Source of the DNA: Elephas maximus
Taxonomy: Eukaryota
Direction: 5' to 3'
Length of the DNA stretch: 64,000 nucleotides
NCBI RefSeq assembly: GCF_024166365.1
Contig: NC_064841.1
Coordinates: 46,311,680 to 46,375,679, forward strand
In this document: one piece after another, positions 12,201 to 58,144 of the stretch
Position numbering within the stretch: position 1 is the first letter of the stretch
Layout of the letters: every line of letters begins with the position of its first letter
Position numbers and translations under genes: made by a program
Notes under the pieces: generated by a model
Told to the model about the DNA's origin: nothing
The model's database searches: none
What the model saw: the letters and a program-made list of their open reading frames with translations, nothing else

Positions 12201-13280
12201 GAAAAAAGAGAAAGAAAGAAAGAAAGAAAAAAGAAATGCCCTCAGGGATCCCACTGACATGGCTGCACAGACTGGGGAAGTGGCTCCTAAGCTGTGCAGT
12301 GCAGCCCAGCTGGAATGGGCTCTCAAGCCACAAAAAGAGAAAGAAAACAAACAAAACAGAACAAAGCAAAATAAAATAGAATAAAAATCCCAGGGATCCC
12401 ACCAGCCTGGTATTGCAGGCCAGTGGAGTTGTTCCCCAGTCAAGCAACTCTTCACAGCCTTTCAAGAAGAAGCAAAGATGGCATTCAGAACCAGGTACTC
12501 GAGAAAAAGGAGGGAGAGGTGGGGGGAGACATGGAAGAAACCAAAAGAAACAGAAAAAAGCAATATCAGCAACAGACAAATGGCACTCAGTGAGCCTGCC
12601 AGTGTGGGAAAGGTGAATCCAAGCAGCCTGAGGTTGAAGCAGTTGCCTTCCTGCCAAGAGACTGCAGCAGGTAGGAAGCAGAGGAGGCTGGGTGGGGAAG
12701 AAGGGTGGGAGTTAAAAAAAAAATTAGGAAAGCATAAATCGCTGGTTATCAGGTGCTCTGTCTCCTGCTGGGAACTTCGTAAAGCTGCTTTCCTCTACTC
12801 CCTGTCTGCCGATCTTCAATGTGGATGGGGCGAATTCAGCAGCATGGACGCTGCACTCACTGGCCAGCCAAGCCACCATTGCCAGCCAGGAAGCAAGGAG
12901 GTAGAATAGCAGGGAGAGGAAGGGGAGTGAGAAAGCATGTATTGGTGGTTACCAGGTGCTCTGTCTTCTGCTGGGAGCTCCATGAAGCTGCATTCCTGTG
13001 CTCCCTGTCCAGCAATCTCCATCAGGAGTCCAAGATGGCGGATCCGTGCTGCGTTAGCTGATAGGGGTCCTCTGCACATATCTCTCCTCACTCTACTCTC
13101 TGTCAGTTCATTATTCCCTTTGGTGCTTGGCTGAGCTCTTTATCTCTTCATTTAACACTTCAGGTTCCAGGATTGGCATTTGTCTCTGCTATTTGCCTCT
13201 TAGTTTTTTGGAACTTTGCTGTGGGGGGATGGCATGGTGCTTCTGTCTATGGTGCCATGTTAGCTGGAAGTCCACCAAGT
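9291..13280 (-). mobile_element. L1 of a second, diverged lineage ('type B'), 5' portion in antisense: ORF2 first ~300 codons (9291-~10050), ORF1 (~10090-11340), 5'UTR ~1.9 kb (11350-13280) with two ~210-bp tandem monomers at its 5' end
   Basis: Minus ORF 10695-11018 (KETLRIMWDTIKSKNLRVIGVSEQGEKMENTE...PRHIIVTLTKTKDKEK) is an L1 ORF1 C-domain. Plus-strand 9300-9467 is the antisense image of ORF2 just after the EN domain and is identical in kind to the minus ORF 39275-39667 opposite a sense ORF2. The 5'UTR 11350-13280 is collinear with 27862-29740. Confidence 0.8.
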
Positions 13281-30009: not shown

Positions 30010-30289
30010 TGGAGGCGGGGCCAAGATGGCGGACTAGGTGGACCCTACCGCGGATCCCTCTTGCAACAAAGACTTAGAAAAACAAGTGAATCGATCACAT
30101 ATATAACAATCTACGAACTCTGCACAACAAACACAGACTTAGAGACGGAGAACGAACAAATACGGGCAGACAGCGATCGTTTTCAGAACTAAGAGCCAGC
30201 GTACCAGGCAGGTGACCTTCGGAGCCCGGGCTGGGGCAGAGCCCAGGGGGACAGACGGCACAGACAAGGGGCCCAGCCCTACCCACCCC

Positions 30290-31090
30290 GAACCCATCCC
30301 GGGAGGAAGTCTAGCTGGTTGGCGTGGGCGGTGTAGCGGCGAAGCCGGTGGGAGAAACGCCCGGGAGGAAGTGACGGATCTTGGAGCGGAGAGAGCAGCG
30401 TCCCAGCCGGGGCGCCGTCCCGCTGGGAGTTTGGCGGGAGGCGGGCGAGACGCGAGCGTGGGGATCACCTATATTTCCCTAAAGCGACCCCGGGGGGGGA
30501 CGCCCAGACATTCGTGAGGGCCATGTCCACCCAGTTCGCGCGAGCGGTGCGGCGCACTGGAGGGAGAAATCCCCGGGAGGAAGTGACCGGTCTTGAAGCA
30601 GGGAGAGCAGCGTCCCAGCCAGGGAGCCGTCCCGCTGGGATTTTGCGAGAGCGGGCGGGGTGTGAGTGCATTCCCCTGAATAGGCCCCGGGGGCGAGCCC
30701 GGCTATTCATGAGGGCCACGCCCACCCAGTTCGCGCGAGCGGTGTGGCGTACCGGAGGGAGAAATCCCCGGGAGGAAGTGACGGGTCTCGGAGCGGGGAG
30801 AGCAGCGTCCCAGCTAGGGAGCCGTCCCGCTGGGATCTTGGCGAGAGCGGGCGGGGTGTGAGCACATTCCCCTGAATAGACCCCGGGGGCGTGCCCAGCT
30901 GTTCGTGAGGGCCACGCCCACTCAGTTCGCGCGAGCGGTGCGGCGCACCAGAGGGAGAAATCCCCGGGAGGAAGTGACTGATCTTGGAGCGGGGAGAGTA
31001 GCGTCCCAGCCGGGGAGCCATCCTGCCGGGATTCTGGCGGACGGGGGCAGGACGTGAACGCGGGGATCAGCTCTATATTCTGTGGTGCTA
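30290..31090 (+). promoter_or_regulatory. L1 5'UTR tandem CpG-rich monomer array (~4 copies of ~195-213 bp), a putative L1 promoter
   Basis: A repeating unit cccgggaggaagtgac(c/g)g(g/a)tcttg(g/a)agcggggagagcagcgtcccagc(c/t)(a)gggagccgtcccgctgggat.ttggcgagagcgggcggggtgtgag...gttcgtgagggccacgcccac.cagttcgcgcgagcggtg(c/t)ggcg.ac..gagggagaaat recurs at ~30362, 30573, 30768 and 30962. CpG density is very high. Confidence 0.7.
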
Positions 31091-31229
31091 CACGCCTAGC
31101 TTTCTGATTCCTCCCCACCCTCCCCAGGCGGCTCCATTAACATCCGAATACCCTGAGCCAGAAGGAGAATTCAGATAGGGATCCGACTGCATTTTTTTTA
31201 GCTGATTACCTGGAAAATCTAGTTTCCCA

Positions 31230-32292
31230 GTGATGGCTCAGAGACAGCAGTCCATATCAAACCACATAAAGAAACAGACCATGACAGCTTCTCCAACCCC
31301 CCAAACAAAAGAATCAAAATCTTTCCCAAATGAAGATACAATCCTGGAATTATCAGATACAGAATATAAAAAACTAATTTACAGAATGCTTAAAGATATC
31401 ACAAATGAAATTAGGATAACTGCAGAAAAAGCCAAGGAACACACTGATAAAACTGTTGAAGAACTCAAAAAGGTTATTCAAGAACATAGTGGAAAAATTA
31501 ATAAGTTGCAAGAATCCATAGAGAGACAGCATGTAGAAATCCAAAAGATTAACAATAAAATTACAGAATTAGACAACGCAATAGAAAGTCAGAGGAGCAG
31601 ACTCGAGCAATTAGAATGTAGACTGGGACTTCTGGAGGACCAGGGAATCAACACCAACATAGCTGAAAAAAAAATCAGATAAAAGAATTAAAAAAAATGA
31701 AGAAACCCTAAGAATCATGTGGGACTCTATCAAGAAGGATAACTTGCGAGTGATTGGAGTCCCAGAACAGGAAGGGGGGACAGAAAACACAGAGAAAATA
31801 GTTGAAGAACTCCTGACAGAAAACTTCCCTGACATCATGAAAGACAAAAGGATATCTATCCAAGATGCTCATCGAACCCCATTTAAGATTGATCCAAAAA
31901 GAAAAACACCAAGACATATTATCATCAAACTTGCCAAAACCAAAGACAAACAGAAAATTTTAAAAGCAGCCAGGGAGAAAAGAAAGGTCTCCTTCAAGGG
32001 AGAATCAATAAGAATAAGTTCAGACTACTCAGCAGAAACCATGCAAGCAAGAAGGGAATGGGATGACGTACACAGAGCACTGAAGGAGAAAAACTGCCAA
32101 CCAAGGATCATATATCCAGCAAAACTCTCTCTGAAATATGAAGGAGAAATTAAGATATTTACAGATAAACACAAGTTTAGAGAATTTGCAAAAACTAAAC
32201 CAAGACTGCAAGAAATGCTAAAGGAGATTGGCCTGATGACCAATAATATCAGGTACCAGCACAATACAAGGTCACAAAACAGAACGTCCTGA
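31230..32292 (+). pseudogene. L1 ORF1 with a single frameshift (segments 31230-31682 and 31717-32292)
   Basis: MMAQRQQSISNHIKK...coiled coil...IAEKKIR. then ...MWDSIKKDNLRVIGVPEQEGG...PRIIYPAKLSLKYEGEIKIFTDKHKFREFAKTKPRLQEMLKEI. Removing one A from the A9 run at 31661-31669 restores ...AEKKSDKRIKKNEETLRIMWDSIK. Confidence 0.8.
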
Positions 32293-32712
32293 TATCAACG
32301 CAACTCAAATAGGGAAAGCACAAAAACAAAGTAAGATTAATTCTAAAAAATAAATAAATAAACAAAATAGTACACATAACAGGAAATCATGGAAATCAAT
32401 AGATAAATGATCACAATAAAAAAAAAGAGGGACTAAACATAGGAGGCATGGAACTGCCAGATGGAGAGTTACACAAGGCGATATAGAAGGATACAAGTTA
32501 GGTTTTTACTTAGAAAAATAGGGGTAAATAATAAGGTAACCACAAAAAGGAATATCAACTCCATAACTCAAGAAAAACGTTAACGACTCAACAAACATAA
32601 AGTTAAACATTATGAAAATGAGGATCTCACAATCTACTAAGAAAAATGTCTCAGCACAAAAAAGTATGTGGAAAAATGAAAAGGCCAACAACACACATGA
32701 AAAGGCATCAAA

Positions 32713-35700
32713 ATGACAGCACTAAAAACTTATTTATCTATAATTACGCTGAATGTAAATGGACTAAATGCACCAATAAAGAGACAAAGAGTCACGGACT
32801 GGATAAAGAAACACGATCCATCTATATGCTGCCTACAAGAGACACACCTTAGACTTAGAGACAGAAACAAACTAAAACTCAAAGGATGGAAAAAAATATA
32901 TCAAGCAAACAATAAGCAAAAAAGAAGAGGAGTAGCAATATTAATTTCCGACAAAATAGACTTTAGACTTAAATCCGCCACAAAGGATAAAGAAGGACAC
33001 TATATAATGATAAAAGGGACAATTGATCAGGAAGATATAACCATATTGAATATTTACGCACCCAATGACAGGGCTACAAGATACATAAATCAAATTTTAA
33101 CAGAATTGAAAAGCGAGATAGACACCTCCACATTTATAGTAGGGGACTTCAACACACCACTTTTGAAGAAGGACAGGACATCCAGTAAGAAGCTCAATAG
33201 AGACACGGAAGACCTACTTACAACAATCAACCAACTTGACCTCATAGACTTATACAGAACTCTCCACCCAACTGCTGCAAAATATACTTTTTTTTCTAGT
33301 GCACATGGAACATTCTCTAGAATAGACCACATATTAGGTCATAAAACAAATCTTGGTAGAATTCAAAACATCGAAATATTAGAAAGCATCTTCTCAGACC
33401 ACAAGGCAATGAAGCCAGAAATCAATAACAGAAAAACTAGGGAAAAGAAATCAAATACTTGGAAAATGAACAATACCCTCCTGAAAAAAGACTGGGTTAT
33501 AGAAGACATCAAGGAGGGAATAAGGAAATTCTTAGAAAGCAACGAGAATGAAAAGACTTCCTATCAAAACCACAGCAAAAGCAGTGCTCAGAGGCCAATT
33601 TATATCGATAAATGCACACATACAAAAAGAAAGAGACAAAATCAGAGAACTGTCCCGACAACTTGAACAAATAGAAAGTGAGCAACAAAAGAACCCATCA
33701 GGCACCAGAAGAAAACAAATCATAAAAATTAGAGCTGAACTAAATGAATTAGAGAACAGAAAAACAATTGAAAAAATTAACAAAGCCAAAAGCTGGTTCT
33801 TTGAAAAAATTAACAAAATTGATAAACCATTGGCTAGACTGACTAAAGAAAAACAGGAAAGGAAACAAATAACCCGAATAAGAAACGAGAAGGACCACAT
33901 CACAACAGAGCCAAATGAAATTAAAAGAATCATTTCAGATTACTACGTAAAATTGTACTCTAACAAATTCGAAAACCTAGAAGAAATGGATAAATTCTTA
34001 GAAAAATACTACCTACCTAAACTAACACATTCAGAAGTAGAACAACTAAATAGACCCATAACAAAAAAAGAGATTGATACAGTAATCAAAAAACTTCCAA
34101 CAAAAAAAAGCCCTGGCCCGGACGGCTTCACTGCAGAGTTCTACCAAACCTTCAGAGAAGACTTAACACCACTACTACTGAAGGTATTTCAAAGCATAGA
34201 ACAAGAAGGAATACTACCCAACTCATTCTATGAAGCTACCATCTCCCTGATACCAAAACCAGGTAAAGACATTACAAAAAAAGAAAATTACAGACCTATA
34301 TCCCTCATGAACATAGATGCAAAAATCCTCAGCAAAATTCTAGCCAATAGAATCCAACAACACATCAAAAAAATAATTCACCCTGATCAAGTGGGATTTA
34401 TACCAGGTATGCAAGGCTGGTTTAATATCAGAAAAACCATTAATGTAATCCATCACATAAATAAAACAAAAGATAAAAACCACATGATGTTATCAACAGA
34501 TGCAGAAAAGGCATTTGACAAAGTTCAACACCCATTTATGATAAAAACTCTTACCAAAATAGGAATTGAAGGAAAATTCCTCAACATAATAAAGGGCTTT
34601 TTTTATGCAAAGCCAACAGCCAATATCACTCTAAATGGAGAGAACCTGAAAGCATTTCCCCTGAGAATGGGAACCAGACAAGGATGCCCTTTATCACCAC
34701 TCTTATTCAGCATCGTACTTGAAGTCCTAGCCAGGGCAATTAGGCTAGACAAAGAAATAAAGGGTATCCAGATTGGCAAGGAGGAAGTAAAGCTATCACT
34801 ATTTGCAGAGGACATGATCGTATACATGGAAAACCCTAAGGAATCCTCCAGAAAACTACTGAAACTAATAGAAGAGTTTGGAAGAGTCTCAGGTTATAAT
34901 ATAAACATACAAAAATCACTTGGATTCCTCTACATCAACAAAAAGAACACCGAAGAGGAAATAACCAAATGAATGCCATTCACAGTAGCCCCCAAGAAGA
35001 TAAAATACTTAAGAATAAATCTTACCAAGGATGTAAAAGACCTATACAAAGAAAACTATAAAACTCTGCTACAAGAAATTCAAAAGGACATACTTAAGTG
35101 GAAGAACATACCCTGCTCATGGATAGGAAGACTTAACATAGTAAAAATGTCTATTCTACCAAAAGCCATCTATACATATAACGCACTTCCAATCCAAATT
35201 CCAATGTCATATTTTAAGGGGATAGAGAAACAAATCACTAATTTCATATGGAAGGGAAAGAACCCCCGGATAAGTAAAGCATTACTGAAAAAGAAGAAGA
35301 AAGTGGGAGGCCTCACTCTACCTGATTTCAGAACCTATTATACAGCTACAGTAGTCAAAACAGCCTGGTACTGGTACAACAACAGGCACATAGACCAATG
35401 GAACAGAATTGAGAACCCAGATATAAATCCATCCATGTACGAGCAGCTGATATTTGACAAAGGACCAGTGTCAGTCAATTGGGGAAATGATAGTCTTTTT
35501 AACAAATGGTGCTGGCATAACTGGATATCCATTTGCAAAAGAATGAAACAGGACCCATACCTCACACCATGCACAAAAACTAACTCCAAGTGGATCAAAG
35601 ACCTAAACATAAAGACTAAAATGATAAAGATCATGGAAGAAAAAATAGGGACAACCCTAGGAGCCCTAATACAGGGCATAAACAGAATACAAAACATTAC

Positions 35701-36508
35701 CAAAAATGATGAAGAGAAACCAGGTAACTGGGAGCTCCTAAAAATCAAACACCTATGCTCATCTAAAGACTTCACCAAAAGAGTAAAAAGACCACCTACA
35801 GACTGGGAAAGAATATTCAGCTATGACATCTCAGACCAGCGCCTGATCTCTAAAATCTACATGATTCTGTCAAAACTCAACCACAAAAAGACAAGCAACC
35901 CAATCAAGAAGTGGGCAAAGGATATGAACCCAGAAGATATTCAGGCAGCCAACAGATACATGAGAAAATGCTCCCGATCATTAGCCATTAGAGAAATGCA
36001 AATTAAAACTACGATGAGATTCCATCTCACACCAACTAGACTGGTATTAATCCAAAAAACACAAAATAACAAATGTTGGAGAGGCTGCAGAGAGATTGGA
36101 ACTCTCATACACTGCTGGTGGGATTGTAAAATGGTACAACCACTTTAGAAATCCTTCTGGCATTATCTTAAACAGTTAGAAATAGAACTACCATACAACC
36201 CAGAAATCCCACTCCTCGGAATATACCCTAGAGATACAAAAGCCTTCACACAAACAGACATATGCACACCCATGTTTATTGCAGCTCTGTTTACAATAGC
36301 AAAAAGCTGGAAGCAACCAAGATGTCCGTCAACGGATGAATGGGTAAATAAATTGTGGTATATTCACACAATGGAATACTACGCATCGATAAAGAACAGT
36401 GACGAATCTCTGAAACATTTCATAACATGGAGGAATCTGGAAGACATTATGCTGAGCGAAATGAGTCAGAGGCAAAAGGACAAATATTGTATAAGACCAC
36501 TATTATAA
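32713..36508 (+). pseudogene. L1 ORF2 (endonuclease, reverse transcriptase, Cys-rich C-terminus) with three lesions
   Basis: The EN ORF 32713-33666 changes frame to the RT ORF 33548-34972 (overlap 33548-33666). There is an in-frame TGA at 34970-34972 (...[19 protein letters not shown]) and a TAG at 36146-36148 (...CKMVQPL*). Homology continues to 36508 (...KDKYCIRPLL*). Confidence 0.85.
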
Positions 36509-37525
36509 GATCTTGAGAAATAGAAAAAACGGAGAAGAACACATACTTTTGTGGTTACAAAGGGGGGAGGGAGGGAGGGAGGGAGAGGGTTTTTTATTGA
36601 TCAATCAGTAGATAAGAACTGGTTTGGGTGAAGGGAAAGACAACACGCAATACAAGGAAGGTCAGCCTAATTGGACTGGACTAAAAGCAAAGAGGTTTCC
36701 GGGATAAAATGAAAGCTTCAAAGGTCAGCGGAGCAGGGGCTGGGGTCTGGGGAACATGGTTTGAGGAGACTTCTAAGTCAACGGGCAAAATAATTCTATT
36801 ATGAAAACATTCCGCATCCCACTTTGAATTGTGGCGCCTGGGGTCGTAAATGCCAACAAGCGGCCATCTAAGATACATCAATTGGTCTCAACCCACCTGG
36901 AGCAAAGGCAAAGGAAGAACACCAAGGTCACACGACAACTAAGAACCCAAGAGACAGAAAGGGCCACATGAACCAGAGACCGACATTATCCTGAAACCAG
37001 AAGAACTAGTTGGTACCCGGCCACAATCGATGTCTGCCCTGCTAGGGAGCACAACAGACAACTCCTGAGGGAGCAGGAGGCCAATGGGATGCAGACCCCA
37101 AATTCTCATAAAAAGACCATACCTAATGATATGAATGTGACTAGAGGAATCCCAGAGACAATGCTCCCCAGAACTTCTGATGGCACAGGACGGGAACCAT
37201 CCCCGAAGACAACTCATCAGGCGTGAAAAGGACTGGTCAGCGGGGGGGAGAGAGATGCTGATGAAGAGTGAGCTAATTAAATCAGGTGGACACTGGAGAG
37301 TGTGTTGGCAACTCTTGACTGGAGGGGGGATGGGAAGATAGAGAGAGAGGGAAGATGGCAAAATTGGCACGAAACGAGAGACTGAAAGGGCTGAGTCAAT
37401 AGGGGGAGAGCAAGTGGGAGAAGGGAGTATGATGTATGTAAACCTACATGTGACAGACTGATTGGAATGGTAAATGTTCACTTGAAGCTTAATAAAAATT
37501 AATTAAAAAAAAAAAAATTAGAAAT

Positions 37526-42330: not shown

Positions 42331-43312
42331 AATTGTTGTTAGGTGCCGTCGAGTTGATTCCAACTCACAGCGATGCTATGTACAGCAAAACGAAACGCTG
42401 TCTGGTCCTGCGTCATTCTCACAATCGTTATGCTTAAGCCTGTTGTTGCAGCCACTGTGTCAATCCGTGTTGAGGGTCTTCCTCTTTTTTCGCTGACCCT
42501 CCACTTTAGCAAGCATGATGTCCTTCTCCAGGAACTGATCCCTCCTGATGATATATTCAAAGTATGTGACACGCAGTCTCGCCATCCTTGCTTCCATCCT
42601 TGCACTCCTTCAAAGATAGATTTGTTCATTATCTTGGCAGTCCACGGTATATTCAATATTCTTTGCCAACACCACAATTCACAGGCATCAATTTTTCTTT
42701 ACCTTCATTATTCATCATTCAGCTTTCATGCGCGTATGAGACTACTGAAAAAGCCATGCTTGGGTCAGGCACATCTTAGTCTTCAAGGTGACATCTTTGC
42801 TTTTCAATGCTTTAAAGAGGTCTTTTGCAGCAGACTGGCCCAATGCAATGTGTCTTTTGATTTCCTGACTGCTGCTTCCATGAATGTTGATTGTGGATTT
42901 GAGTAAAATGAAATCCTTGACAACTCCCATCTTTTCTTCATTTATCATGATGTTGCTTATTGGTCCAGTTATGAGAATTTTTGTTTTCCTTATGTTGAGG
43001 TATAATCCATACTGAAGGCTATGGTCTTTGATCTTCATTAGTAAGTGCTTCAAGTCCTCTTCACTTTCAGCAAGCAAGGTTGCATCATCTGCATATCCCA
43101 GGTTGTTAATGAGTCTTCCTTCAATCCTGATGCCTTATTCTTCTTCGTATAGTCCAGCTTCTCAGCTTGTTGCTTAGCAAACAGACTGAATAGGTATGGT
43201 GAAATAATATAAGCCTGGCACATACCTTTCCTGACTTAAAACCACACAGTATCTCCTTGTTCTGTTCGAACAACTGCCTCTTGATCTATGTAAACCCACA
43301 CATCTATTGTCA
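42331..43312 (-). mobile_element. RTE/BovB-like, 3' ~1 kb (RT C-terminal region and 3' tail), antisense
   Basis: Minus ORFs 42339-42677 (MWCWQRILNIPWTAKIMNKSIFEG...) and 42742-43077 (MLAESEEDLKHLLMKIKDHSLQYGLYLNIRKTKILTTGP...) are the BovB/RTE RT C-terminus. Confidence 0.8.
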
Positions 43313-44663
43313 ACTGATTTCTGAAAAGGGTGTTAAGTCCATTCAGTGGGGAAAGAAGGGTCTCTTCAACACATGGTGCTGGGAAAACTGGATTTCACAT
43401 ACAGAAAAATGAAACAAAATCCATGTCACATAACATACACAGAAACAAATTCAAAATGGATTAAGGATCTAAATATGCAAACTAAAACCATAAAATTCTT
43501 AGAAGAAAGAGCAGGGGCAATGCTGTCAGGCCTAGTTTTTAACAAGGGATTATCAAACACAATAACAAAAGCACAAACAGCAAAACACAAAATAAATAAA
43601 TGAGACTTCGTAAAAATTAAAAACTTTTGTTCATCAAAATAAGAACCCGTAAAAAAACCCTTACTTTACCAAAAATGTGGTGTGGCAGGCTATCAACTGG
43701 GAGTATATCTTCAGAAACTGTATATCTGACAAGAATCTAATAACCAAAATATATATAAAACTTCAACAACTTGATAACCAAATGACAAATAACCCAATCA
43801 TAAAACGAGCAAAGAACTTGAAAAAACATTTCACCAAAGAGGACATTCAAATGGCCACTAAACACATGAAAAGACATTCAGTGTCATTAGCCATCAGAGA
43901 GATGCAAATCAAAACCACAGTGAGATACCATTTCACTCCTACTTGGATAGCTAAGATTAAAAAAAAAAAAAAAAACAGGAAATACTAAATGTTGTCAAGG
44001 ATGTAAGGAAATTGGAACCCTTATCCATTGGTAGTGAGAATGCAAACGGTACAGCTCTTGTAGAAAACAGTGTGGTGGTTCCTCAAAAAACTAAATGTGG
44101 AACTACCATGTTGTTGTCAGCTGCCACTGAGTCAGTTCCAACTCGTAGTGACCCAGAGGTTCTGTGCCATCCTCATAATTGTTGTTATGCTTGAGCCCAT
44201 TGTTGCAGCCACTAAGTCAGTCCATCTCTTTAAGGGTCTTCCACTTTTTTGCTGACCCTCTATATTACCAAGCACGATGTCCTCCAGGGACTGGTCCCTC
44301 CTGATAAAAGAATTACCATAAAAACCACCATATGACCCAACAATTCCATTCCTAGGTAGATACCCAAAAGACTTGAAAGCAGAGACTCAAAAAGAGACTT
44401 GTACACCAATGTTCACTGAAACACTATTCACAATAGCCAAAAGGTGGGAACAACCTAAATGCCCATCAAAATATTAATGGATAAACAAAACCTGGTACAT
44501 ATGTACAATGGAATACTATTCTGCCAACAAAAGAAATGAAGTTCTGAATCATGCTACAATCTGAATGGAGCCTAAAGACATTATGCAGAGTGAAATAAGC
44601 CAATCACAAAAGAACAAATATTATACGACCTCACTTATATAAAAAGACAAGAAGAAATGACAG
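43313..44663 (+). mobile_element. Old L1 3' portion (ORF2 C-terminus and start of 3'UTR), split by the insertion at 44110-44312
   Basis: ORFs 43346-43603 and 43677-43988 (…[23 protein letters not shown]) then 44313-44663 (...PKDLKAETQKETCTPMFTETLFTIAKRWEQPKCPS...) are the L1 ORF2 end. Confidence 0.75.
44110..44312 (-). mobile_element. Short RTE-3'-tail-derived (SINE-like) element inserted in the old L1
   Basis: gttgttgtcagctgccactgagtcagttccaactcgtagtgaccc...tgttgcagccactaagtcagtccatctctttaagggtcttccacttttttgctgaccctctatattaccaagcacgatgtcctccagggactggtccctcctgata is collinear with the last ~200 bp of the RTE copies, for example 42331-42540. Confidence 0.6.
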
Positions 44664-44665
44664 GG

Positions 44666-47438
44666 TGCAGGGCCATGATGGCAGAGTAGTCAGACACTTC
44701 CTGTGGTCCCTCTTACAACAAAGACCCAAAAAAGCCAATGAATCAATTACATACGACAATCTAGGAGCCTTGAACATCAAAGGCAAGGTTGAAGAATCAG
44801 ACTGAGGGACAGGGGAGGGAGAGATGGTTCAGAAGCAGTGAGGAGTTGCCAGTGGGAACCACCACCCTGCAGGCTGGATCGCCATGTGCGGTAAGGCAAG
44901 CAGTGGCGCTTGGGATGCGTTTTCCACATAGGGAGAGGCTGAGGAGCAGAGTCTGCTCAACCTCCAGAACCAGCAAGAAGCAGCACTCAATCAGCAAAAC
45001 ATAAGTACATGCATCTAAGCTACCACGTGGTTCAAAAAACACCACCTTTGGGAAGAACTTCTCTCCCATTTACCTGCTCCCTCCCTACTCTGCACCAGGT
45101 CTGGGCTGGCTTCAGCAACTGCTGCACACCCTGGGCTGGAAGAGCACCCATCAAATGTTCTGAGCCATTCTCCCAGCTTTGGAGAGGGAACAAATTAACA
45201 AACAGGAAAAAATTACCTGCCAGCTCCCCTAAGCTGGAAACTCAGGGCAGGCACAGTTCCTTTGTCTAGGCACAGGCATAAGGGGGTCCACAGACTTTGA
45301 ATGCCTTTCACCCCTGCATAGACCTGTGTGGGCTCACTCCATTGCATAGGTCCTCATTACCACACTACAACAGGGTATACACCTGAAGTCTAAGTTCAAC
45401 TGTATCAGCTATAAGGTGGAGTGGGAGGTTCATGACATTTAACACTGCTCTGCTCATTAGCAAGGTCCTCACTTAAGCACATCAGGGACCTAAGGACCGG
45501 TGGTTTCACCCATATCACCTAGCCACTCATGACAAGGATCCAAGAATAAGTGCTGCCTCCCAGTCCCTACAGCCAATAGCATTGGGTACCCATACTCTGG
45601 CTGCAAAACCTACCCATCTACATGCTCCAGGGAACGGGGACACGCTTTCCTCCCAGACACTCAGGAGCAGCCGTAAGCCTCTTGCCTTACTCAGCACATG
45701 ATCCCCTACTGGAGCCAGATACCTGTGCCTACGCCAATCACCCCTGTCCATCTAGAACTGTAGGTGAGAGCCTGAACCACACACTACGTGACTGACAACC
45801 TAGACACCTAAGATGAATTTATACAAGAAAAGCAAACGGACTCCTGGGTTCACATACCTAGTAAAAACTCTTAATGACCCTGGTGACAGGACATGAGAGC
45901 TTCAAATGTGACAATTATCAACTAGCTCACATGACTGGCCTATTTGGGCATATTAAAACAAGAAGCTAGAATATAGTATACAAACATAAATAAATATAAT
46001 AACTTATTGATGGCTTGGAAACAACAGTCAACATCAAATCACATAAAGAGGCAGGACATGATGGCTTCAGTAAGTGAGCAAAACAAGAATCAAGAAATCT
46101 TCCGGAGGAAGATAATTTCTTGAAATTACCGGCAATAGAATTCAAAAGATGAATATACAGAGTTCTTCCTGAGATCAAGAGGGAGATCAGGAAAAATGCA
46201 GAACAAGTCGGGGAACACACAGTCAAAGCTATAGAGGAAATTAAGAAGGTTATGCAAAGCATAATGATAATTTTAATGGGCTGCAAGAATCCATAGAGAG
46301 ACAGCAAACAGAAATCTAAAAGATTAACCACAAAATTTCAGAATTAGACAACTCAATATTAAGTCATAGGAGCAGTATTGAGGCAGAAAGTCAGAATTAG
46401 TGAAGTCAAAGATAAAGCACTTGACACCAACTCATTTGAGGAAAAAGCAGAAAAAAGAATTAAAAAAAAAATGAAGAAACCCCAAGAATTCTGTGAGACT
46501 CTATCATGAGGAATAACCTACGAGTGATTGGAGTACCAGAACAGGGGTAAATAACAGAAAATACACACAGAATTGCTGAAGATTTGTTGGTGGAAAACTT
46601 CCCTGATATCATGAAAGATGAGAAGGTATCTATCCAAGAAGCTGATTGAACTCCACACAATGTAGATCCCAAAAGAAAGCCACCAAGACATATTATAATC
46701 AAACTTAAAAAACCAAAGGTAAAAAGAGAGTTTTAAGAGTGGCTAGGGATAAACAAAAAGTCATCTACAAAGGAGAGTCAAGAAGAGGAAGCTTGGACTA
46801 CTCAGCAGAAACCATGCAGGCAAGAAGGCAATGGGATGACATATATAAAGCCTTGAAGGAAAACACCTGGCAGCCAAGAATTATATACCCAACAAAACTC
46901 CCAACCATGACAGTGAAATTAGGGCATTTCCACATAAACAGAAGTTAAAGGAATTTGTAAAAACCAAACCAAAATTAAAAGAAATACTGAATGGAGACTT
47001 CTGGTTAGAAAATCAGTAATATCAGATAATAACAGAAGACTAGAACACAGGATAGAATAACCAGGTATCAACCCAGAAAGGGAAGTCACAAATAAAGCTA
47101 AAACACTGAAAATAGGGAAACAGAGACATCAATATGTAAAAGATGACAACATTAAAACAAAACATAGGGATTAAATGTAGTCACAGATCTTTCATATGGA
47201 GAAGAAGTCAAGGTGTTGTAAAGAAACAAAAGATTGTTTAAACTTAGAAAAATCGAGGTAAATATTCAGGTATCCACAAAGGAAACTAACAATCCTACAC
47301 ATCAAAATAAAAACCATAAAGACTCAGTAAATACAAAATCAAGAACAATGAAAAGAAAATACATAAAGAAAAATGACTCAGCTCAGAAAATTAAGTGGAA
47401 AAAAGAAAGTGTCAACAACACACACCAAAAAAATACAT
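44666..47438 (+). mobile_element. L1 5' portion: 5'UTR type 'b' (~1.4 kb, non-monomeric), ORF1 (degenerate), inter-ORF spacer. It ends exactly where the ORF2 ATG would start
   Basis: Start gtgcagggccatgatggcagagtagtcagacacttcctgtggtccctcttacaacaaagacccaaaaaagcc. Collinear with 6418-9000. The last bases ...acacaccaaaaaaatacat correspond to ...aaaaaaagacatcaaaATG of the 6418 copy. Confidence 0.8.
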
Positions 47439-48060
47439 GAAGGCGGGGCCAAGATGACTGACTAGGTAGAAGCTACAGCGGATCCCTCTTACAACAAAGA
47501 CTCAGAAAAACAAGTGAATCGAGCACATATATGACAATCTACAAGCCCTGACCATCAAACACAGAACTAAGGAGCTGACCTGAGTGACAGGGGAGCAAAA
47601 AGCCACACTCTGAAGCGGCAACCGCTTCTGGAACCAGCGTTCCGTGCCACAGCCTTGAGCCTTTGCGGTTCCCTGGTGCCAGAGTGGTGGGGCTGATCAC
47701 GGCTTCCTGAGGCGGCGCAAGCAAGGGACGCAGCCCTCGCGCCCTGAAGTAACCTCGGCGGAAACCCAGCCAGCCCACACAGGCTGCACAACGACTCAGT
47801 TGACAAGAGAAGGAGAAATCGCAGGGAAGGCAGGGATTGGTTTTGGAGCCTGGAGTGCAGCGTCCCAGCCAGAAAACCTTGGCACTGGGCTTTGGACTAG
47901 GAGCGGAGGAACTGATCACAGCTTCCTGAGACAGCACAAGCACAGGACGAAGGCCTGACCTTTGAGGACAATCTCGACCCAGCCAGCTGGCGCACACAGG
48001 CTACACGGCCCTCTGGAATCTCAGATAAAACAGTCATCACCAAGCAAGATAAGTAACTGT
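47439..48060 (+). mobile_element. L1 5'UTR fragment of a third type (shared ~120-bp leader plus two ~220-bp monomers)
   Basis: gaaggcggggccaagatgactgactaggtagaagctacagcggatccctcttacaacaaagactcagaaaaacaagtgaatcgagcacatatatgacaatctac closely matches 30011-30120. Downstream monomers contain gcagcgtcccagccag as in the 30.3-31.1 kb array. Confidence 0.75.
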
Positions 48061-50610
48061 CTATATTGCCAGCACACTACTCTTCTTTGGTGAAGTGCCT
48101 GTTCATATCTTTTGCTCATTTTTTAACTGGGTTATTTGTCTTTTTGTTGTTGAGTTTTTGCAGTATCATATAGATTTTAGAGGTCAGAAGCTGATAGGAA
48201 ATGTCATAAAAAAGCTAACACTTTTTCCCAGTCTGTATGTAATCTTTTTACTCTTTTGGTGAAGTCTTTGGATGAGCATAGGTGTTTGATTTTTAGGAGC
48301 TCCCCGGTATCTAGTTTCTCTTCTGGTGTTTGTACATTGTTAGTAATGATTTGTATACTGTTTATGCCATGTATTAGGGCTTCTAGCATTGTTCCTATTT
48401 TTTATTCCATAATCTTCAGCATTTTAGATTTTATAGTTAGGTCTTTGATCCATTTTGAATTTGTTTTTTGTGCGTGGTGTGAGGTGTGGGTCTTGTTTCA
48501 TTTTTTTGCAGATGGGTATCCAGTTATGTCAGCACCATTTGTTAAAGAGACTGTCAACTGTCTTTTCCTCATTTAACTGACTTTGGGCCTTTCTCAAATC
48601 AAATATCAGCTGCTCATATGTGGATGGATTTATGTCTGGATTCTCAATTCTGTTCCACTGGTCTATGTATCTGTTGTTGTACCAGCACCAGGCTGTTTTG
48701 ACTACTGTGGTGGTATAATAGGTTCTAAAATCAGGTACAGTGAGGCCTCCCACTTTGTTCTTCTTTTTCAGTAATGCTTTACTTGTCTGGGGCCTCTTTC
48801 CTTTCCCCTTCCATATGAAGTTGGTTATTTGTTTCTCAATCTCATAAAAAAATGTCGTTGGAATCTGAATCAAAATTCCATTGTATCTACAGATCTCTTT
48901 TGGTAGAATAGATATTTTTACAATGTTAAGTTTTCCTATCCATGAGCAAGGTATGTTTTTCCACTTATGTAGGTCTGTTTTGGTTTCTTGCAGTAGTGTC
49001 ATGTACTTTTCTTTGTATAAGGCTTTTACATCTCTGGTAAGATTTATTCCTAAGTATTTTATCTTCTTGGGGGCTATTGTAAATGGTATTGATTTGGTGA
49101 TTTCCTCTTCGATATTCTTTTTGTTGTTATAGAGGAATCCAACTAATTTCTGTATGTTTATCTTGTATCCTGACACTCTACTGAACTCTTCTATTAGTTT
49201 CAGTAGGTTTCTTGAGGATTCCTTAGGGTTTTCTGTGTATATGATCATGTCATCTGCAAATAAAAATTCTTTTGCTTCTTCCTTGCCAATCTGGATGCCC
49301 TTTATTTCTTTATCTAGCCTAACTGCTCTGGCTAGGACCTCAGGCACAATGCTGAATAAGAGTCGTGATAAAGGGCATCCTTGTCTGGTTCCCAGTCTCA
49401 AGGGGAATCCTTTCAGACTCTCTCCATTTAGAATGATGTTGGCTATTGGCTTTGCGCACTGGGTTTTTTTTGGCTTTGTATAAATGTCCTTTTTTATGTT
49501 GAGGAATTTTCCTTCTATTCCTATTTTGCTGAGAGTTTTTATCATGAATGTGTGTTGTACTTTGTCAAATGCCTTTTCTGCATCAGTTGATAAGATCATG
49601 TGGTTCTTGTCTTTTGTTTTGTTTATATGATGGATTACATTAATTGTTTTTCTAATGTTGAACCATCCCTGCATACCTTGTATGAATCTCACTTGGCCAT
49701 CGTGAATTTTTTTTTTTTTTGGATATGGTGTTGAATTCTATTGGCTAGAATTTTTTTTGAAGATTTTTGCATGTAAGTTCGTGAGGGATATAGGTCCATA
49801 ATTTTCTTTTTTTGTGTGATGTTCTTACCTGGTTTTGGTATCAGGGATATGCTGGCTTCATAGAATGAGTTTGGGAATATTCCATCCATTTCTATGCTCT
49901 GAGATACCTTTAGTATTAGTGGTGTTAACTCTTCTCTGAAAGTTCAGTAGAAGTCTGCAGTGAAGCCATACCAGCCAGGATTGATTTTTTTTTTTTTGGC
50001 GGGAGTTTTTTGATTACCTTTTCAATCTCTTATTTTGTTATGGGTTTCTTCAGTTGTTCTACCTCTGTTAGTTTAGGTAAGTAGTGTGTTTCTAGAAATT
50101 CATCCATTTCTTCTAGGTTTTCAAATTTGTTAGAGTACAATTTTTCATAGTAATCTGATAAGTTTCTTTTAATTTCAGCTGGGTCTGCTGTGATATCGCC
50201 CATCTCATTTCTTATTCGGGCTATTTCCTTTCTCTCCTCTTTTTTTTTTTAAATCATTTTGGCCAAAAGTTTATCAATTTTGCTAAATTTTTCAAGGAAC
50301 CAGCTTTTGATATTGTTAATTGCTTTTCTGTTCTCTATTTCATTTAATTCTGCTATAAAAAATTCTGCTATAATTTTTATTATTTGCTTTCTTCTGGTTC
50401 CTGAAGTGTTTTTGTTGTTCTTGTTGCTCTCTATTTGTTCAAGTTGTAGGGATAATTCTTTGATTTTGACCCTTTCTTCTTTTTGTACGTGTGCATTTAT
50501 TGATATAAGTTGACCTCCAAGCACTGTTTTAGCTGTATCCCAAACGTTCTGATAGGAAGTATTTTCATTCTCATTGGATTCTATGAATTTCTTTATTTTA
50601 TCCCTGGGTT
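48061..50610 (-). mobile_element. L1 ORF2 (codons ~330-1060, RT domain) in antisense
   Basis: Minus ORF 48529-49692 (387 aa: ...[81 protein letters not shown]...) and minus 50249-50524 are collinear with the ORF2 of 33548-36148. Confidence 0.85.
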
Positions 50611-51125
50611 AGTGGAGCTGGCTGATTATCTTTTCCCCCAGTTGTGAATTTATTCCTCTTCCATGGCTGGGAGAATGGCTCAGATTGCTCAGCAGGGCAT
50701 ATCTCAGGCCCAGGGAAACTGACAGTCACTGAAGCTGGCTTGGGGGCTGGGGGCACAGTAAAATATATGCAAGAACTTAGCTTTTGCCCAGAGCATCATT
50801 CTTCTTTGGTTCCAGAGGTGTGAGTAGGCTGTGCAGCTGGCTGTTTCTCCCTGAGGAAACTGCAGCTGAAGACTACCACCAGCCCACCACAGTCACTCCT
50901 GCGAATGGTGCCTGAGGGTTCCTGGTGATTCAGGTCCAGCAACTCCTCTCTGCTTCTGAACCGTCTCTCTCTCTCCCTCTGCTGCTCAGTCTGTTTTCTA
51001 ACTTTGCCTTTGATGTTCAGGGCTCCTACGTTGTCATAAATATAATCTTTTCACTTGTTTTTTCAGGTCTTCATTGTAAGAGGGATCACCGGAAGCGTCT
51101 GACTACTCCACCATCTTGACCCCAC
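50611..51125 (-). mobile_element. L1 5'UTR (type 'b') first ~500 bp, antisense
   Basis: The reverse complement of 51107-51125 is ggtggggtcaagatggtggagtagtcagacgcttccggtgatccctcttacaatgaagacc, the L1 leader. The rest is collinear with 6418-6900 and 44666-45200. Confidence 0.7.
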
Positions 51126-51127
51126 CC

Positions 51128-52960
51128 TTGTTTGATTTCTTGGTGGCTACATTCATGGCCATTAATTGTGATTCCAAGTAAAATGAAATCCTTGACGCCT
51201 TCATCCTTTCTCCGTTTATCATGGTGATGCTTATTGGTCCAGTTGTGAGGATTTTTGTTTTCTTTATCTTGAGATGTAATCCATACTGAAAGCTAAAGTC
51301 TTTGATCTTCATCAGTAAGTTCAAGTCCTCTTTGCTTTCAGCAAGCAAGGTTGTGCCATCTGCATATTGCAGGTTGTTTATGAGTTTTCTTCCAATAATG
51401 ATGCTGCATTCTTAGTCATATAGTCCAGTTACAGATTATTTGTTCAGCATACATACTGAATAATTACGATAACAGGATACAACCATGGCACACACCATTC
51501 CTGATTTTATACCATGAAGTATCCTCTTGTTCTGTTCAAACGACTGCTTATTGGTCTTTGTACAGGTTTCACATGAGCATAATTGTTCTGGAATTCCCAT
51601 CTTTTGTAATGTTCTCCATAATTTGTTATGATCCACACAGTAGAATGCCTTTGCATAGTCAATGAAACACAGGTAAACACCTTTCTGATATTCTTTCCTT
51701 TAACCCAAGATCCATCTGACATCAGCAATGATATCCCTGGTTCCATGTCCTCTTCTGAATCCGGCTTGAATTTCTGGCAGTTCACTATCGATATAAAGCT
51801 GCAACCATTTTTTAATTATCTTCACCAAAGTTTTACTTATGTGTGGTATTAATTATACTGTTTGATAACTTCCACATTCTGTTGGATCACCTTTCTTTGA
51901 AATGGGCACAAATATGGATCTCTTCCTGTCAGTTGACCAGGTAGCTGCTTTCAAATTTCTTGGCATAGACAAGTGACTGTTTCCAGTGTTGTATTCATTT
52001 GTTAATACATCTCAATTGGTATTCTGTCAATTTCTGGAGCCCTGTTTTTCATCAATGCCTTTGGTGCAGCTTGGACTTCTTCCTTCAATATCATCAGTTC
52101 TTGAAGTGGTTCAACGTTGATCAATTTTTTTGGTACAGTGACTCTGTATATTCCTTTCATCTGCTTCTGATGCTTCCTGAGTTGTTTAATATTTTCCCCA
52201 TAGAATCTTTCAATATTGTAACTAGAGGCTTGAATTTTTTCTTTGGTTTCTTCAGCTTGAGAAATTCTGAGTATGTTCTTTTCTTTTGGTTTTCTATCTC
52301 CAGATCTTTGCACATGTCATTATAATACTTTGTTTTGTCAAGCAGCCCTTTGAAATCTTCTGTTCAGGTTTTTTACTTCATCATTTCTTCTGTTCACTTT
52401 AGCTACTCTACCTTCAAGAGCAAGTTTTAGAGTCTCTTTCTGACATCCATTTTGGTCTTTTCCTTCTTTCCTCCCTTTTTAATGACCTTTTTCTTTCCTT
52501 GATGTCATCCCACAAATTATCTGTTTTTGGCATGGACAAGTGACTCTTTCCAGCATTGTATCCATTTATTGAAACATCATTAGTGTTCAATGTATCAAAA
52601 GTATCTTTGAGATGGTCTCTAAATTCAGGTGGGATATACTGAAGGTCGTACTTTGGCTCTTGTGGACTTGCTTTCATTTTCTTCAGCTTCAACTTGAACT
52701 TGCATATGAGCAGTTGATGGTCTGTTCCACAGTCAGCCCCTGGCCATGTTCTGTCTGATGATTTGTTGTACTGTGGTGTTTTGTGTGTTGCTATGATGCT
52801 GGAAGCTATGCCACCGGTATTTCAAATAACAGCAGGATCATTCCTGGTGGGCAGGTTTCAGTGTCGCTTCCAGACTAAGACAGACTAGGAAGAAAGACTT
52901 CAGGATCTACTTCTTTAAAAAACTGGCCAGTGAAAACCTTATTAATGGTAGCGGAACAAT
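51128..52960 (-). mobile_element. RTE/BovB-like body (EN C-terminal through RT), antisense, lacking the 3'-terminal ~0.5 kb
   Basis: Minus ORFs 51103-51348 (MLAESKEDLNLLMKIKDFSFQYGLHLKIKKTKIL...), 52002-52313 (...KALMKNRAPEIDRIPIEMY) and 52414-52692 (...KYDLQYIPPEFRD...). The reverse complement of 52700-52780 gives ...RTWPGADCGTDHQLLICKFKLKLKK, the BovB EN C-terminus. Confidence 0.75.
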
Positions 52961-53400
52961 GTCTGATATGATGCCAGAAGATGAGCCCCTCTGGTTGGAA
53001 GGCACTCAAATTATGACTAGAGGAGGGCTGCCTCCTCAAAGTAGAGTTGACCTTAATGACATGGATGGAGTAAAGCTTTTGAGACCTTCATTTGATGTGT
53101 CAAGACTCAAAAGAGAAGAAACAGCTGCAAACATCCATTAATAATCAGAATGTGGAATGTAGGAATTATGAATTTAGGAAAATTGGAAGTTGTCAAACAT
53201 GAAATGGAATGCTTAAAGATCTGTATCCTAGGCATTAGTGAGATGAAATTGGCCATTTTAAATCGACAATCATATGGTCTAGTATGCCAGGAACAATAAA
53301 CTGAAGAGGAACTACATCGTATTCACTGTTGAAAAGAACACTTTAAAATCTATCCTCTTGACCAAGGCAAAGTCATAGAAGCTTCCAAGATATAACTAAA
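52960..53400 (+). mobile_element. RTE 5' end (upstream small ORF and EN N-terminal ~80 codons) in the opposite orientation to the adjacent RTE body
   Basis: 53150-53400 translates MWNVGIMNLGKLEVVKHEMECLKICILGISEMK..., collinear with 5225-5330 (LGKLEIIKNEVDHISINILGISELKW). ORF 52959-53141 lies upstream. Confidence 0.65.
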
Positions 53401-54170
53401 CACCTTGATGGACCTAGTTGCTGGAGCTGAGGGCTGGGGACCATGCTGTCTGGAGACATCTAAGTCAACTGGCATAACATACTACATAAAGAAAATGTTC
53501 TACTTCCTACTTTGGTGAGTAACATTTGGGGTCTTAAAAGCTTGCGAGTGGCCATCTAAGATATAACTAGCGGTCTCTTCCCATCTAGAGCAAAGGTGAG
53601 TGAAGAAAACCAAAGACCCAAGGGAGCAATTAGTCCAAAGGACAAATGGACCACACCACCACAGCTGCCACCAGCCTAAGCCCAGAGGAACTAGAGGGTG
53701 CCCGGCTACCACTATTGACTGCTCTGACAGGGATCACAATAGAGAGTCCTGGAGAGGGTGGGAGAAGGATGTAGAACAGAAAATCAAATTCATAAAAGAA
53801 GACTAGACTTACTGGCCTGAGACTAGAGGAACCCCCGAGATTATGGCCCTAAGACACCCCTCTGATTTGGAACCACAGTCATTCCTGGGAACCACTTTCC
53901 AGCCAAACAACAGACAGGCCTAAAAAAAATAACACCAGAAAGGAACTTGCTCCATAGAACAATCAATTATACCAGACCAAAGAGGTGCCCAAAAGCTAAG
54001 ATGAGAAGGCAGAAAGGGACAGGAAAACCAGATAAAAGGAAATGGGGAAACCAGGGCAGAAATGGGAAGAAGGCTGTCATGGAACACTTTGTGTACAATT
54101 TTTTGAATGGGATACTAATTTGCTCTGTAAACTTTCACCTAATACACAATATTTTTTTAAAAGTTACCTA
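53400..54170 (+). mobile_element. L1 3'UTR fragment (long-3'UTR lineage) with A-rich end
   Basis: ...ggggtcttaaaagcttgcgagtggccatctaagatataac...ccacaccaccacagctgccaccagcctaag...gactgctctgacagggatcacaa... is collinear with 39700-40150 and 36800-37250. Confidence 0.65.
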
Positions 54171-54285
54171 GATAGACAGACAGACACGGATAGATAGATG
54201 GATGATAGGTAGATAGGTAGGTAGATGATAGATAGATGACAGATGATAGATGATACATAGACAGACAGATAGACAGACAGATCAG
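54170..54285. repeat. (GATA/GACA)n compound microsatellite
   Basis: gatagacagacagacacggatagatagatggatgataggtagataggtaggtagatgatagatagatgacagatgatagatgatacatagacagacagatagacagacagatcag. Confidence 0.85.
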
Positions 54286-55994: not shown

Positions 55995-57055
55995 TTGTTG
56001 TCAGGTGCCATGCAGTCGGTTCCAACTCATAGCAACCCTATGTACAACAGAATGAAACATCGCCCAGTCCTGCACCATCCTCGCAATCATTTTATGTTTG
56101 AGCCCATTGTTGCAGCTACTGTGTCAATTCATCTCATTGAGGGTCTTCCTCTTTTTTGCTGACTCTCTACTTTACCAAGCATGATGTCCTTCTCCAGAGA
56201 CCGGTCCCTCCTGATAGCATGTCCAAAGTACGTGAGATGAAGTTGCACCATCCTCGCTTCTAAGGAGCATTCTGGCTGTACTTCTTCCAAGACAGATTTG
56301 TTCATCCCTCCAGCAGTTTAGGGTATATTCAATATTCTTTGCCAACACCATAATTCAAATGCATCAGTCCTTCTTCAGTATTCTTTATTCATTGCCCAGC
56401 TTTTGCCTGCATGTGAGGCGACTGAAAATACTATGGCTTGGGTCAGGCACACCTTAGTTCTCAAAGTGACATGTTTGCTTTGGAACACATTAAAGATGTC
56501 TTTTGCAGCAGATCTGTCCAACGCAATTCGTCGTTTGATTTCTTGATGGCTACTTCCCTGGGCATTGATTGTAAATCCAAGTAAAATGAAATCCTTGACA
56601 ACTTCATTATTTTCTCCAATTATCATGATGTTGCTCATTGCTCCAGATGTGAGGATTTTTGTTTTTTTTATGTTGGGGTATAATCCAAACTGAAGTCTTC
56701 AGTCTTCATCAGTAAGTCCTTCAAGTCCTCTTTGCTCTCAGCAAGCAAGGTTGTGTCATCTGCATATGGCGGGTCGCTAATGAATCCTCCTCCAATCCTG
56801 ATGCCGGATTCTTCTTCATATAGTCAAGCTTCTCAGATTATTTGCTCAGCATACATACTGAAAAGTATGGTGAAAAGATACAACCCTGACGCACACCTTT
56901 CCTAACCTTAAACCACGTGACAACAGTCGAACAACAGTCTATGTATAGACCAAGCACAATTAAGTGTTCAGGAATTTCCATTCTTCATGTTATCCTAATT
57001 TGTTATGATCTACACAGTAGAATGCCTTTGCATAGTAAATAAAACACAGGTAAAC
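55995..57055 (-). mobile_element. RTE/BovB-like 3' ~1 kb, antisense
   Basis: Minus ORF 56375-56638 (MSNIMIIGENNEVVKDFILLGFTINAQGSSHQEIKRRIALDRSAAKDIF...). Its 3' end is gttgtcaggtgccatgcagtcggttccaactcatagcaaccc. Confidence 0.8.
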
Positions 57056-58144
57056 ATATTGTAATTAAGATAATTAACTGTCTTATAATTAAGAATATAC
57101 AATTACTTTTTTGAGTAAAGACCAAAGGGACTTGTGCATAATATGAATATATCTGTACAAACACCATTAATTTTATGTCACTGAAATAGCCAAAACAGCT
57201 TCTAAGATGAGAGGGATTTTATTAAGTGACATCATTCTTCTAATTTAGAATAACTGAATAAATCTTTAGTAAAACGAAACTACAAAATTAATCCATTATC
57301 CCACAAAAGAAAATCATTGGAGACAAATAAAAAGGAGTTTAATTAGCGAGTTCTCTTTTTTTAGGCTAATATTTAAATGATAATAATAAGCAACACAACT
57401 CCATTTAAGAATACCATCAATGATAAAATCATGAAACAATGTATTAGAGTAATTTAAAAAACAAATTCAGGTGGTAAAGGAGAGATAAAAGAGAAACAAA
57501 AAGACAAAAAAAGTTGGATAGAGAGATATGAAAACAACTCGAAAAAATCAGACAGCTTGGGACTACATATAGGGAAAAAGGAGCAGAAAAGCACACACCA
57601 CCAGAAAAATACCATGGGTAATATAAGTAAGACAGGGAAAATCCATATATAGGATATATCCGTAAAGAAATCTCATCTTAACTTTTAACATTGAACTCCC
57701 TAGTTTCCTCTTATTTTTCTAGTCCTTCTTTCTCAGTCTTTTTTGCTGTTTCCTGCTCTGCCTGGCCACTAAATATTGGTGTTCACCAAGGATAGCCCTA
57801 AGCCCTCTTCTCTGCTCTAGGTATGCTTTCTTTAGTTGATCTTACCTAGACACATGGCTTTAAATACCACTAATTTTCCAACTCTGACCTCTTCCCTCAG
57901 CTCTAGCCTCACATATCCAAGTATGCATTTCCCTCGAATGTCTAACAGGCATCTCAAACTTAAAGTGTCCAAAATACAATTCCAAATATTAGTGTTTCTA
58001 AGGCTCAGCTACAGGTGATGTTTTCTCTTTCCATGTTCTAGCCTGAAATCCTCGCTCTTACGCTAACTATTCATACCTGATTCTTCCTCGAAAACACATC
58101 TCAAATCTTCCCAATTACACAATTCAATTTTTTAAAAGATTATT

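Follow-up and report, generated by a model that had tools for sequence, protein, structure and literature searches.

The closest described counterparts of the locus treated here are LINE-1 (L1, long interspersed element 1) copies which were inserted into older repeats and were afterwards cut by a non-homologous deletion or inversion. The locus is a block of L1 fragments in both orientations at positions 47439-51125 of a stretch of 64,000 nucleotides from Elephas maximus (assembly GCF_024166365.1, contig NC_064841.1, positions 46,311,680 to 46,375,679, forward strand), which is called the window throughout. As in other nests of this kind, younger full-length L1s start canonically inside older L1 or RTE elements, with an A-rich target upstream. 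The difference is that here the 3' halves of the inserts and the downstream halves of the hosts are absent, and the nests are therefore only half visible.

Ostertag and Kazazian are said to have described twin-priming inversions of L1 in 2001. Inversions made by twin or dual priming (Meyer et al. 2010, PMC2837659) are similar to the block in that two L1 fragments are adjacent in opposite orientation. In contrast to them, the fragments of the block belong to different families, are joined at their 3'-proximal ends and carry complete 5' termini on the outside. A second system that has to be considered are the human SpIREs, which are deletions within the 5' untranslated region (5'UTR) or between the 5'UTR and open reading frame (ORF) 1, bounded by GU/AG (Larson et al. 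2018, PMC5860796). One join within the block likewise keeps the 5' end of a 5'UTR and fuses it to downstream L1 sequence by a clean internal deletion. However, this deletion extends to ORF2 codon ~265, a related copy has no GT donor, and the hallmarks of retrotransposition are absent. The L1 5'UTRs of mouse are monomeric and are known as A, Tf and Gf monomers. One 5'UTR of the block and that of a young L1 in the window resemble them, as tandem monomers of ~200 nt, rich in G+C and CpG, are found past the 5' end. They differ from the mouse type in a conserved non-monomeric leader of ~130-240 nt with a YY1-like AAGATGGCG box, which precedes the monomers, and in the block just ~1.6 decayed monomers are kept. 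In human L1 the conserved box is a site of the YY1 type.

The block contains at least five separate repeat copies. They are arranged in two nested stacks, and it is probable that the block is an inert relic of these copies and of one non-homologous rearrangement, and not a single chimeric element. What is seen is ordinary, already known L1 decay, and no function is indicated.

Composition of the block

The window consists of mammalian DNA dense in L1 and RTE/BovB-like fragments. It contains no N or gap, and its mean CpG observed/expected (o/e) ratio is 0.22. When the whole window was searched by tblastn, the queries human ORF1p and ORF2p matched over a dozen L1 pieces, located on both strands, and an RTE C-terminal query matched seven RTE pieces. 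L1 coordinates are given as those of a young full-length L1 at 30012-37517 (plus strand, 7.5 kb), which served as the reference and carries the target-site duplications ATTAGAAATC at both ends. Its ORF2 begins at reference nt 2702, and its CpG-rich 5'UTR (o/e 0.83) contains 2.8 copies of a 196-nt tandem monomer with 88% identity. The ORF2 of this element is almost intact but broken into three ORFs of 317, 474 and 391 aa, and the element itself sits within ORF1 of an older L1.

The features of the block and of its direct neighbors, with the type of evidence used for each, are:

43296-44661, plus strand: e43, an old L1, comprising codons ~909-1272 of ORF2 plus ~20 nt at the start of the 3'UTR (tblastn against human ORF2p)
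44662-47437, plus strand: C, a type-b L1 with canonical 5' terminus, 5'UTR, ORF1 and inter-ORF spacer (element comparison, ORF1 matches)
47438-48034, plus strand: B, a monomer-type ("type-c") L1 5'UTR with canonical 5' terminus, a ~240-nt leader and ~1.6 monomers (alignment of termini, repeat analysis)
48035-48080, no strand: junction stretch of 46 nt that fits neither B nor A' (alignment limits of both sides)
48081-50610, minus strand: A', L1 ORF2 codons ~265-1086, i.e. linker, reverse transcriptase (RT) and part of the C-terminal region (tblastn, comparison with the reference)
48529-49692, minus strand: leftover 387-codon open frame in A' with RT fingers, palm and thumb (matches to RVT_1 and human ORF2p)
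50602-50613, minus strand: join of D and A', where nt ~515 of the 5'UTR meets codon ~265 of ORF2 (alignment with the C 5'UTR and the reference ORF2)
50611-51128, minus strand: D, a type-b L1 5'UTR, nt 1 to ~515, with canonical 5' terminus (alignment with the C and E 5'UTRs)
51129-52762, minus strand: RTE (BovB-like) element, host of D, interrupted mid-ORF (the tblastn match with the RTE C-terminal query ends at 51128)

All segments which the initial annotation had read from the raw sequence were recovered, with coordinates accurate to a few bases but with ORF2 codon numbers that have to be corrected. The plus-strand type-c 5'UTR reported from 47439 is real up to 48034, based on its identity to the reference, its internal monomer repeat and the core shared with the reference. 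The same holds for the 387-codon open RT segment and for the minus-strand type-b 5'UTR reported to nt ~500 and fused directly to ORF2, which is D (nt 1 to ~515, 51128-50611). The minus-strand ORF2 is also present, but it runs from codon ~1086 back to ~265 instead of from ~1060 to ~330. The older plus-strand L1 described as ending at its ORF2 start at 47438 indeed has a boundary there, although C ends at 47437, 6-7 nt before the ATG.

Two nested stacks of independent copies

A host that is broken exactly at the terminus of its insert is found three times, in e43/C (44661/44662), C/B (47437/47438) and RTE/D (51128/51129). With the control at 30011/30012, where target-site duplications are present, four junctions between an interrupted host and an exact L1 5' terminus are available. 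The five L1 5' termini (reference, B, C, D and E, the last being a plus-strand L1 at 6422-9288) align from identical first bases, and the end of the reference is fixed by its target-site duplications. Each 5' terminus has A-rich sequence 12-27 nt upstream of it, which fits the target sites of the L1 endonuclease.

On the plus strand e43 is the host of the C insertion. A sister of e43 at 17165-19010 extends ~210 nt more, up to a poly(A), and no remainder of the last ~200 nt and the poly(A) of e43 could be identified anywhere in the window. C is 74.8% identical to E over 2 kb (match to 6943-9005). Judged by this homologous element, C stops 6-7 nt ahead of the position of the ORF2 ATG: E has GACATCAAAATGA with the ORF2 ATG and, unlike C, continues into ORF2, while C has TACAT followed by GAAGGCGGGGCCAAGATG. 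The latter is the L1 5' terminus with which B starts on the plus strand at 47438/47439, and B interrupts C within the A-rich inter-ORF spacer. Over its first 125 nt, B shares 84-87% identity with the reference element that starts at 30012. B also contains a direct repeat with a period of ~218 nt (monomers at 47682 and 47901; 47682-47789 against 47901-48006), whose score of 63 compares to 17 +/- 2.3 in shuffled sequences and was reached by none of 1000 shuffles. The two monomers are 79-83% identical to each other, and the core of the repeat matches the monomer of the reference. Nothing that should follow B downstream of ~48034, neither ORFs nor tail, is present in the window.

On the minus strand the RTE element is interrupted at 51128/51129. 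A sister RTE copy at 56004-57056 extends beyond the homologous point, and the 3' third of the interrupted element was not found in the window. D shares 79-82% identity with the C and E 5'UTRs and can be aligned to C as far as ...GCCAGCTCCACTAAC. A' covers codons 270-1084 in human ORF2p numbering (tblastn), and its identity to the reference is 81.6% along an alignment of 2515 nt (50597-48081). It comprises no endonuclease domain, 3' end or poly(A), and contains 7 stops and at least 4 frameshifts.

The leftover 387-codon frame in A' matches Pfam RVT_1 (1.9e-25) and residues 565-936 of human ORF2p (1e-150). It is not a gene, because its start is a GTG inside the domain. Exact-product look-ups gave no identical product on record, and in a protein search with this RT ORF the identity of the matches did not exceed 76% and none belonged to the same species; the best relatives stem from other mammals or from bacterial assemblies with contamination. 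The closest named relative (76%) is a "reverse transcriptase family protein" on a 3.8-kb contig of Pseudomonas sp. MOB-449, which is almost certainly mammalian L1 contamination of a bacterial assembly. A metagenome scan with a 43-nt 5'UTR pattern gave no match.

The 5' starts group into two clusters, B with the reference (84%) and C, D and E (79-82%), with 71-76% between the groups. The CpG o/e ratio is 0.51 for B, 0.17 for C and 0.16 for D, compared to 0.83 for the young 5'UTR. Both the CpG ratios of B and C and the clusters of the 5' starts are consistent with an age order that follows the nesting, the host being older and the insert younger. The reading as a recombinant or chimeric L1 is thus not upheld, since the copies are independent, differ in family and age, and each has its canonical 5' terminus in an older repeat. 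That the block is rearranged is supported.

None of B, C, D and A' has a 3'UTR, a poly(A) or flanking target-site duplications in the window; they are fragments and not complete insertions. Nor is a host seen to resume past its insert with a target-site duplication, and for e43, C and the RTE element no continuation was detected in the window. All six remainders that are to be expected, among them the ORFs and tail of B, ORF2 of C, the tails of e43 and RTE and the 3' end of A', are absent from the window in either orientation. All of these pieces would fall on the inner side of the single junction of B and A', and one two-break event therefore explains every absence. Two candidates for missing parts were rejected. 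A plus-strand L1 3'UTR at 53420-53840 is not the tail of C or B but a separate 3'UTR-only insertion in a plus-strand RTE, and an RTE fragment at 44159-44320, which comprises only residues 176-230 and is located inside e43, is not the missing RTE tail.

The following order of events is proposed. As can be read from the insertion points themselves, e43 received the full-length type-b L1 C on the plus strand, and C the full-length monomer-type L1 B; on the minus strand the RTE element received the type-b L1 D/A'. We infer that one non-homologous two-break event then joined B nt ~600 to A' codon ~1086 in opposite orientation at 48035-48080. This event would be either a deletion of at least ~12 kb (the sum of B ~6.9 kb, C ~4 kb, e43 0.2 kb, RTE ~0.5 kb and A' ~0.8 kb) or an inversion with its reciprocal junction outside the window. 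It would have removed or moved the body of B, ORF2 of C, the tails of e43 and RTE and the 3' end of A'. The minus-strand element would also have lost ~2.9 kb during or after its integration, or alternatively A' may have landed in D as a 5'-truncated copy. All parts have decayed since then.

Several points weigh against this scenario. It depends on missing parts that were not themselves observed, the stacks offer no right-hand target-site duplication for a check, and within 64 kb a deletion and an inversion are indistinguishable. The 46 nt of the junction stretch have no other match in the window, and the protein search with the RT ORF found no relative from the same species. An inverted repeat around the junction, which is of marginal significance, might indicate a fold-back or a template switch rather than end joining. 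Finally, a second head-on junction at 9288/9291 could reflect a recurrent process or a recurrent assembly problem.

The block is of little importance in itself, as fragmented, nested and rearranged L1 is normal content of L1-dense mammalian DNA, and it contributes no new type of element or mechanism. It shows that a "chimeric L1" read from raw sequence can be resolved into independent insertions and one rearrangement. Besides, it provides a dated marker: the rearrangement would be younger than the insertion of B and is usable for a comparison with a sister species.

Junction of B and A'

The similarity of B to its own monomer stops at ~48034, and all ORF2 alignments stop at 48081, although 48061-48080 may be strongly diverged ORF2 (~13/20 matches). 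The junction placed by the initial annotation at 48060/48061 lies inside the stretch between these limits (48035-48080), and the junction can be located only to this stretch. Between the two sequences that were joined (at nt ~600 of the 5'UTR and at codon ~1086 of the antisense ORF2) there is no homology, which points to end joining. The join is therefore non-homologous and neither L1-L1 homologous recombination nor a repeat collapse; homologous recombination between inverted L1s was rejected for this reason.

An imperfect inverted repeat of 28-30 nt (48023-48049 and 48081-48110, 24/30 matches) is arranged symmetrically around the junction. A score as high was obtained in 2.1% of shuffles, and the B monomer accounts for half of the repeat. 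A fold-back as the origin of the junction was not retained, as an inverted repeat which 2.1% of shuffles equal is only marginal. It was also considered whether A' is the inverted ORF2 of B itself. This was rejected, as the 85.2% identity of A' to the reference is like that of a type-b element (86.5%), whereas for B the fast-evolving 5' start already reaches 84-87%.

That two real loci were misjoined in the assembly at ~48035-48080, both stacks being normal nests with intact 3' halves elsewhere, appears unlikely. A misjoin also predicts that the missing parts all lie inside one junction, the region is extremely L1-dense, and a second junction of the same kind is found 38 kb off. However, the window has no N or gap, a repeat collapse would have no homology between the joined sequences to act on, and the flanking copies are old (70-87% identical to relatives) and hence easily assembled uniquely. 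The assembly collapse which the initial annotation had offered as an alternative is unlikely on the same grounds, the sequences joined at ~48060 having no homology in a window without N. A formation of the junction during retrotransposition, by twin or dual priming, by template switching of the RT between two L1 RNAs or by a capture of L1 cDNA at a double-strand break that does not depend on the endonuclease, is an even more doubtful proposition. L1 integration is known to give rise to inverted L1 fragments as by-products (PMC2837659), the inverted repeat lies around the junction, and A' has no 3' end, as is possible for endonuclease-independent insertions. Yet B belongs with the reference and A'/D with type-b elements, it is the 3'-proximal ends that meet while complete 5' termini point outward, and after template switching the two parts would share their orientation. 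Neither poly(A) nor poly(T) is found anywhere in the block, including 47438, 48035-48080 and 51128, and the inverted repeat is marginal and half owed to the B monomer. A missing 3' end in endonuclease-independent insertions was reportedly noted by Morrish in 2002 and Sen in 2007. A poly(A) at one end and target-site duplications around the pair, the hallmark of twin priming, were not found, and the flanks of the pair are the interiors of C and of the RTE element. Twin or dual priming was rejected in view of the orientation, the family identity and the lack of poly(A) and target-site duplications.

Join of D and A'

D passes directly into ORF2 at ...GGGATAAAATAAAGAAATTC, which corresponds to GGGAATAAGGAAATTC of the reference, and ~9 nt at the join (CCCAGGGA) can be assigned to either side. 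Missing between D and A' are the rest of the 5'UTR, ORF1, the endonuclease domain and ~25 codons. A' is 85.2% identical to the ORF2 of the reference, and the type-b element E 86.5%. A' is thus about as diverged from the reference as E is, and D and A' can therefore be a single type-b element; judged by divergence, they would be compatible with one type-b family. The simplest reading of the join is an internal deletion of ~2.9 kb, which agrees with the earlier proposal that ORF1, the endonuclease domain and what followed of the 5'UTR were lost, the age of the family being compatible with a single element. Equally, A' could be a 5'-truncated copy that inserted into D, the remainder of D having been lost in the same large event.

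The join could be explained without any deletion at the DNA level if D/A' were retrotransposed spliced L1 RNA, similar to a SpIRE, or if it belonged to a non-autonomous subfamily without ORF1 and endonuclease domain. L1 RNA splicing from the 5'UTR to downstream positions, followed by retrotransposition, is documented in human (PMC5860796), an AG is located immediately upstream of the join in the reference ORF2 (AAGGAG/GGAAT), and the divergence of D and A' fits one family. We regard such an origin as improbable, however. The C 5'UTR, which is ~80% identical and the only type-b one that can be aligned, has no GT at the homologous site (CTAAG/CTGGAAAC) or within 3 nt of it, and no pyrimidine tract precedes the candidate acceptor. 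Moreover, no poly(A) or target-site duplication marks the deleted form as retrotransposed, and a second copy of the join was not found in the window. The related proposal that D/A' is a retrotransposed processed L1 RNA, a non-autonomous RT-only derivative which was mobilised in trans or at breaks and which, facing B, might be a source of double-stranded RNA (dsRNA), would be highly improbable.

Three L1 break points of the window are found just past the endonuclease domain, at 9291, 39489 and 50602-50613 (reference nt ~3495, 3542 and ~3500). Measured in L1 coordinates, the 3' break of F, a minus-strand L1 at 9291-12000, and the 5' break of A' are no more than ~10 nt apart. This clustering is probably due to chance or to an A-rich target hot spot. 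F and A' as the two halves of one element were rejected, as the strand order is wrong and a coincidence is expected among ~20 break points.

Convergent 5'UTRs

As the initial annotation had pointed out, two 5'UTRs face each other, B being directed rightward into antisense ORF2 and D leftward. On this basis the block could be seen as a convergent transcription unit, in which RT sequence is transcribed in sense and antisense from the two opposed L1 5'UTRs and the transcripts supply the production of dsRNA or Piwi-interacting RNA (piRNA). The geometry fits, and B retains 24 CpGs with an o/e ratio of 0.51, above the mean of the window (0.22), about half having been lost. Nevertheless we consider such a unit very improbable. 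The CpG o/e ratio of D (0.16) is below the mean of the window, and B holds only ~1.6 decayed monomers which are 79-83% identical. Mutations affect the ATGGCG core of the conserved 5' box in B, C and D, the AAGATGGCG box having become ATGACT in the case of B and ATGGTG in that of D. In A' the frame changes at least 4 times and is broken by 7 stops. Head-on relics, of which the window contains two, arise by chance in L1-dense DNA. Production of antisense transcripts would be geometrically possible, but finds no support here, and the claim is weakened by the decay.

A second head-on junction and other features of the window

At 9288/9291 two 3'-truncated L1s are joined in convergent orientation, E on the plus strand against F on the minus strand. 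E has its 5' terminus at 6422 and stops at ORF2 codon ~95, and F extends from codon ~265 of its ORF2 backward through ORF1. As the identity between E and F is just 70-82%, they are no recent inverted duplication. This second junction indicates that head-on relics are common in this DNA. Beyond the 5'UTR region of F, at 11950-12600, ~3 repeated units of ~190 nt (GGGATCCCAC...GGCT...) with A-rich tracts between them were observed.

To the right of the block, at 52750-54285, a minus-strand 5'-truncated RTE adjoins the 5' region of a plus-strand RTE (N-terminus of the endonuclease at ~53130-53370). A plus-strand L1 that consists of the 3'UTR alone (~53380-54150) interrupts the plus-strand RTE near 53130, and a (TAGA)n microsatellite comes after this L1 at 54169-54282.

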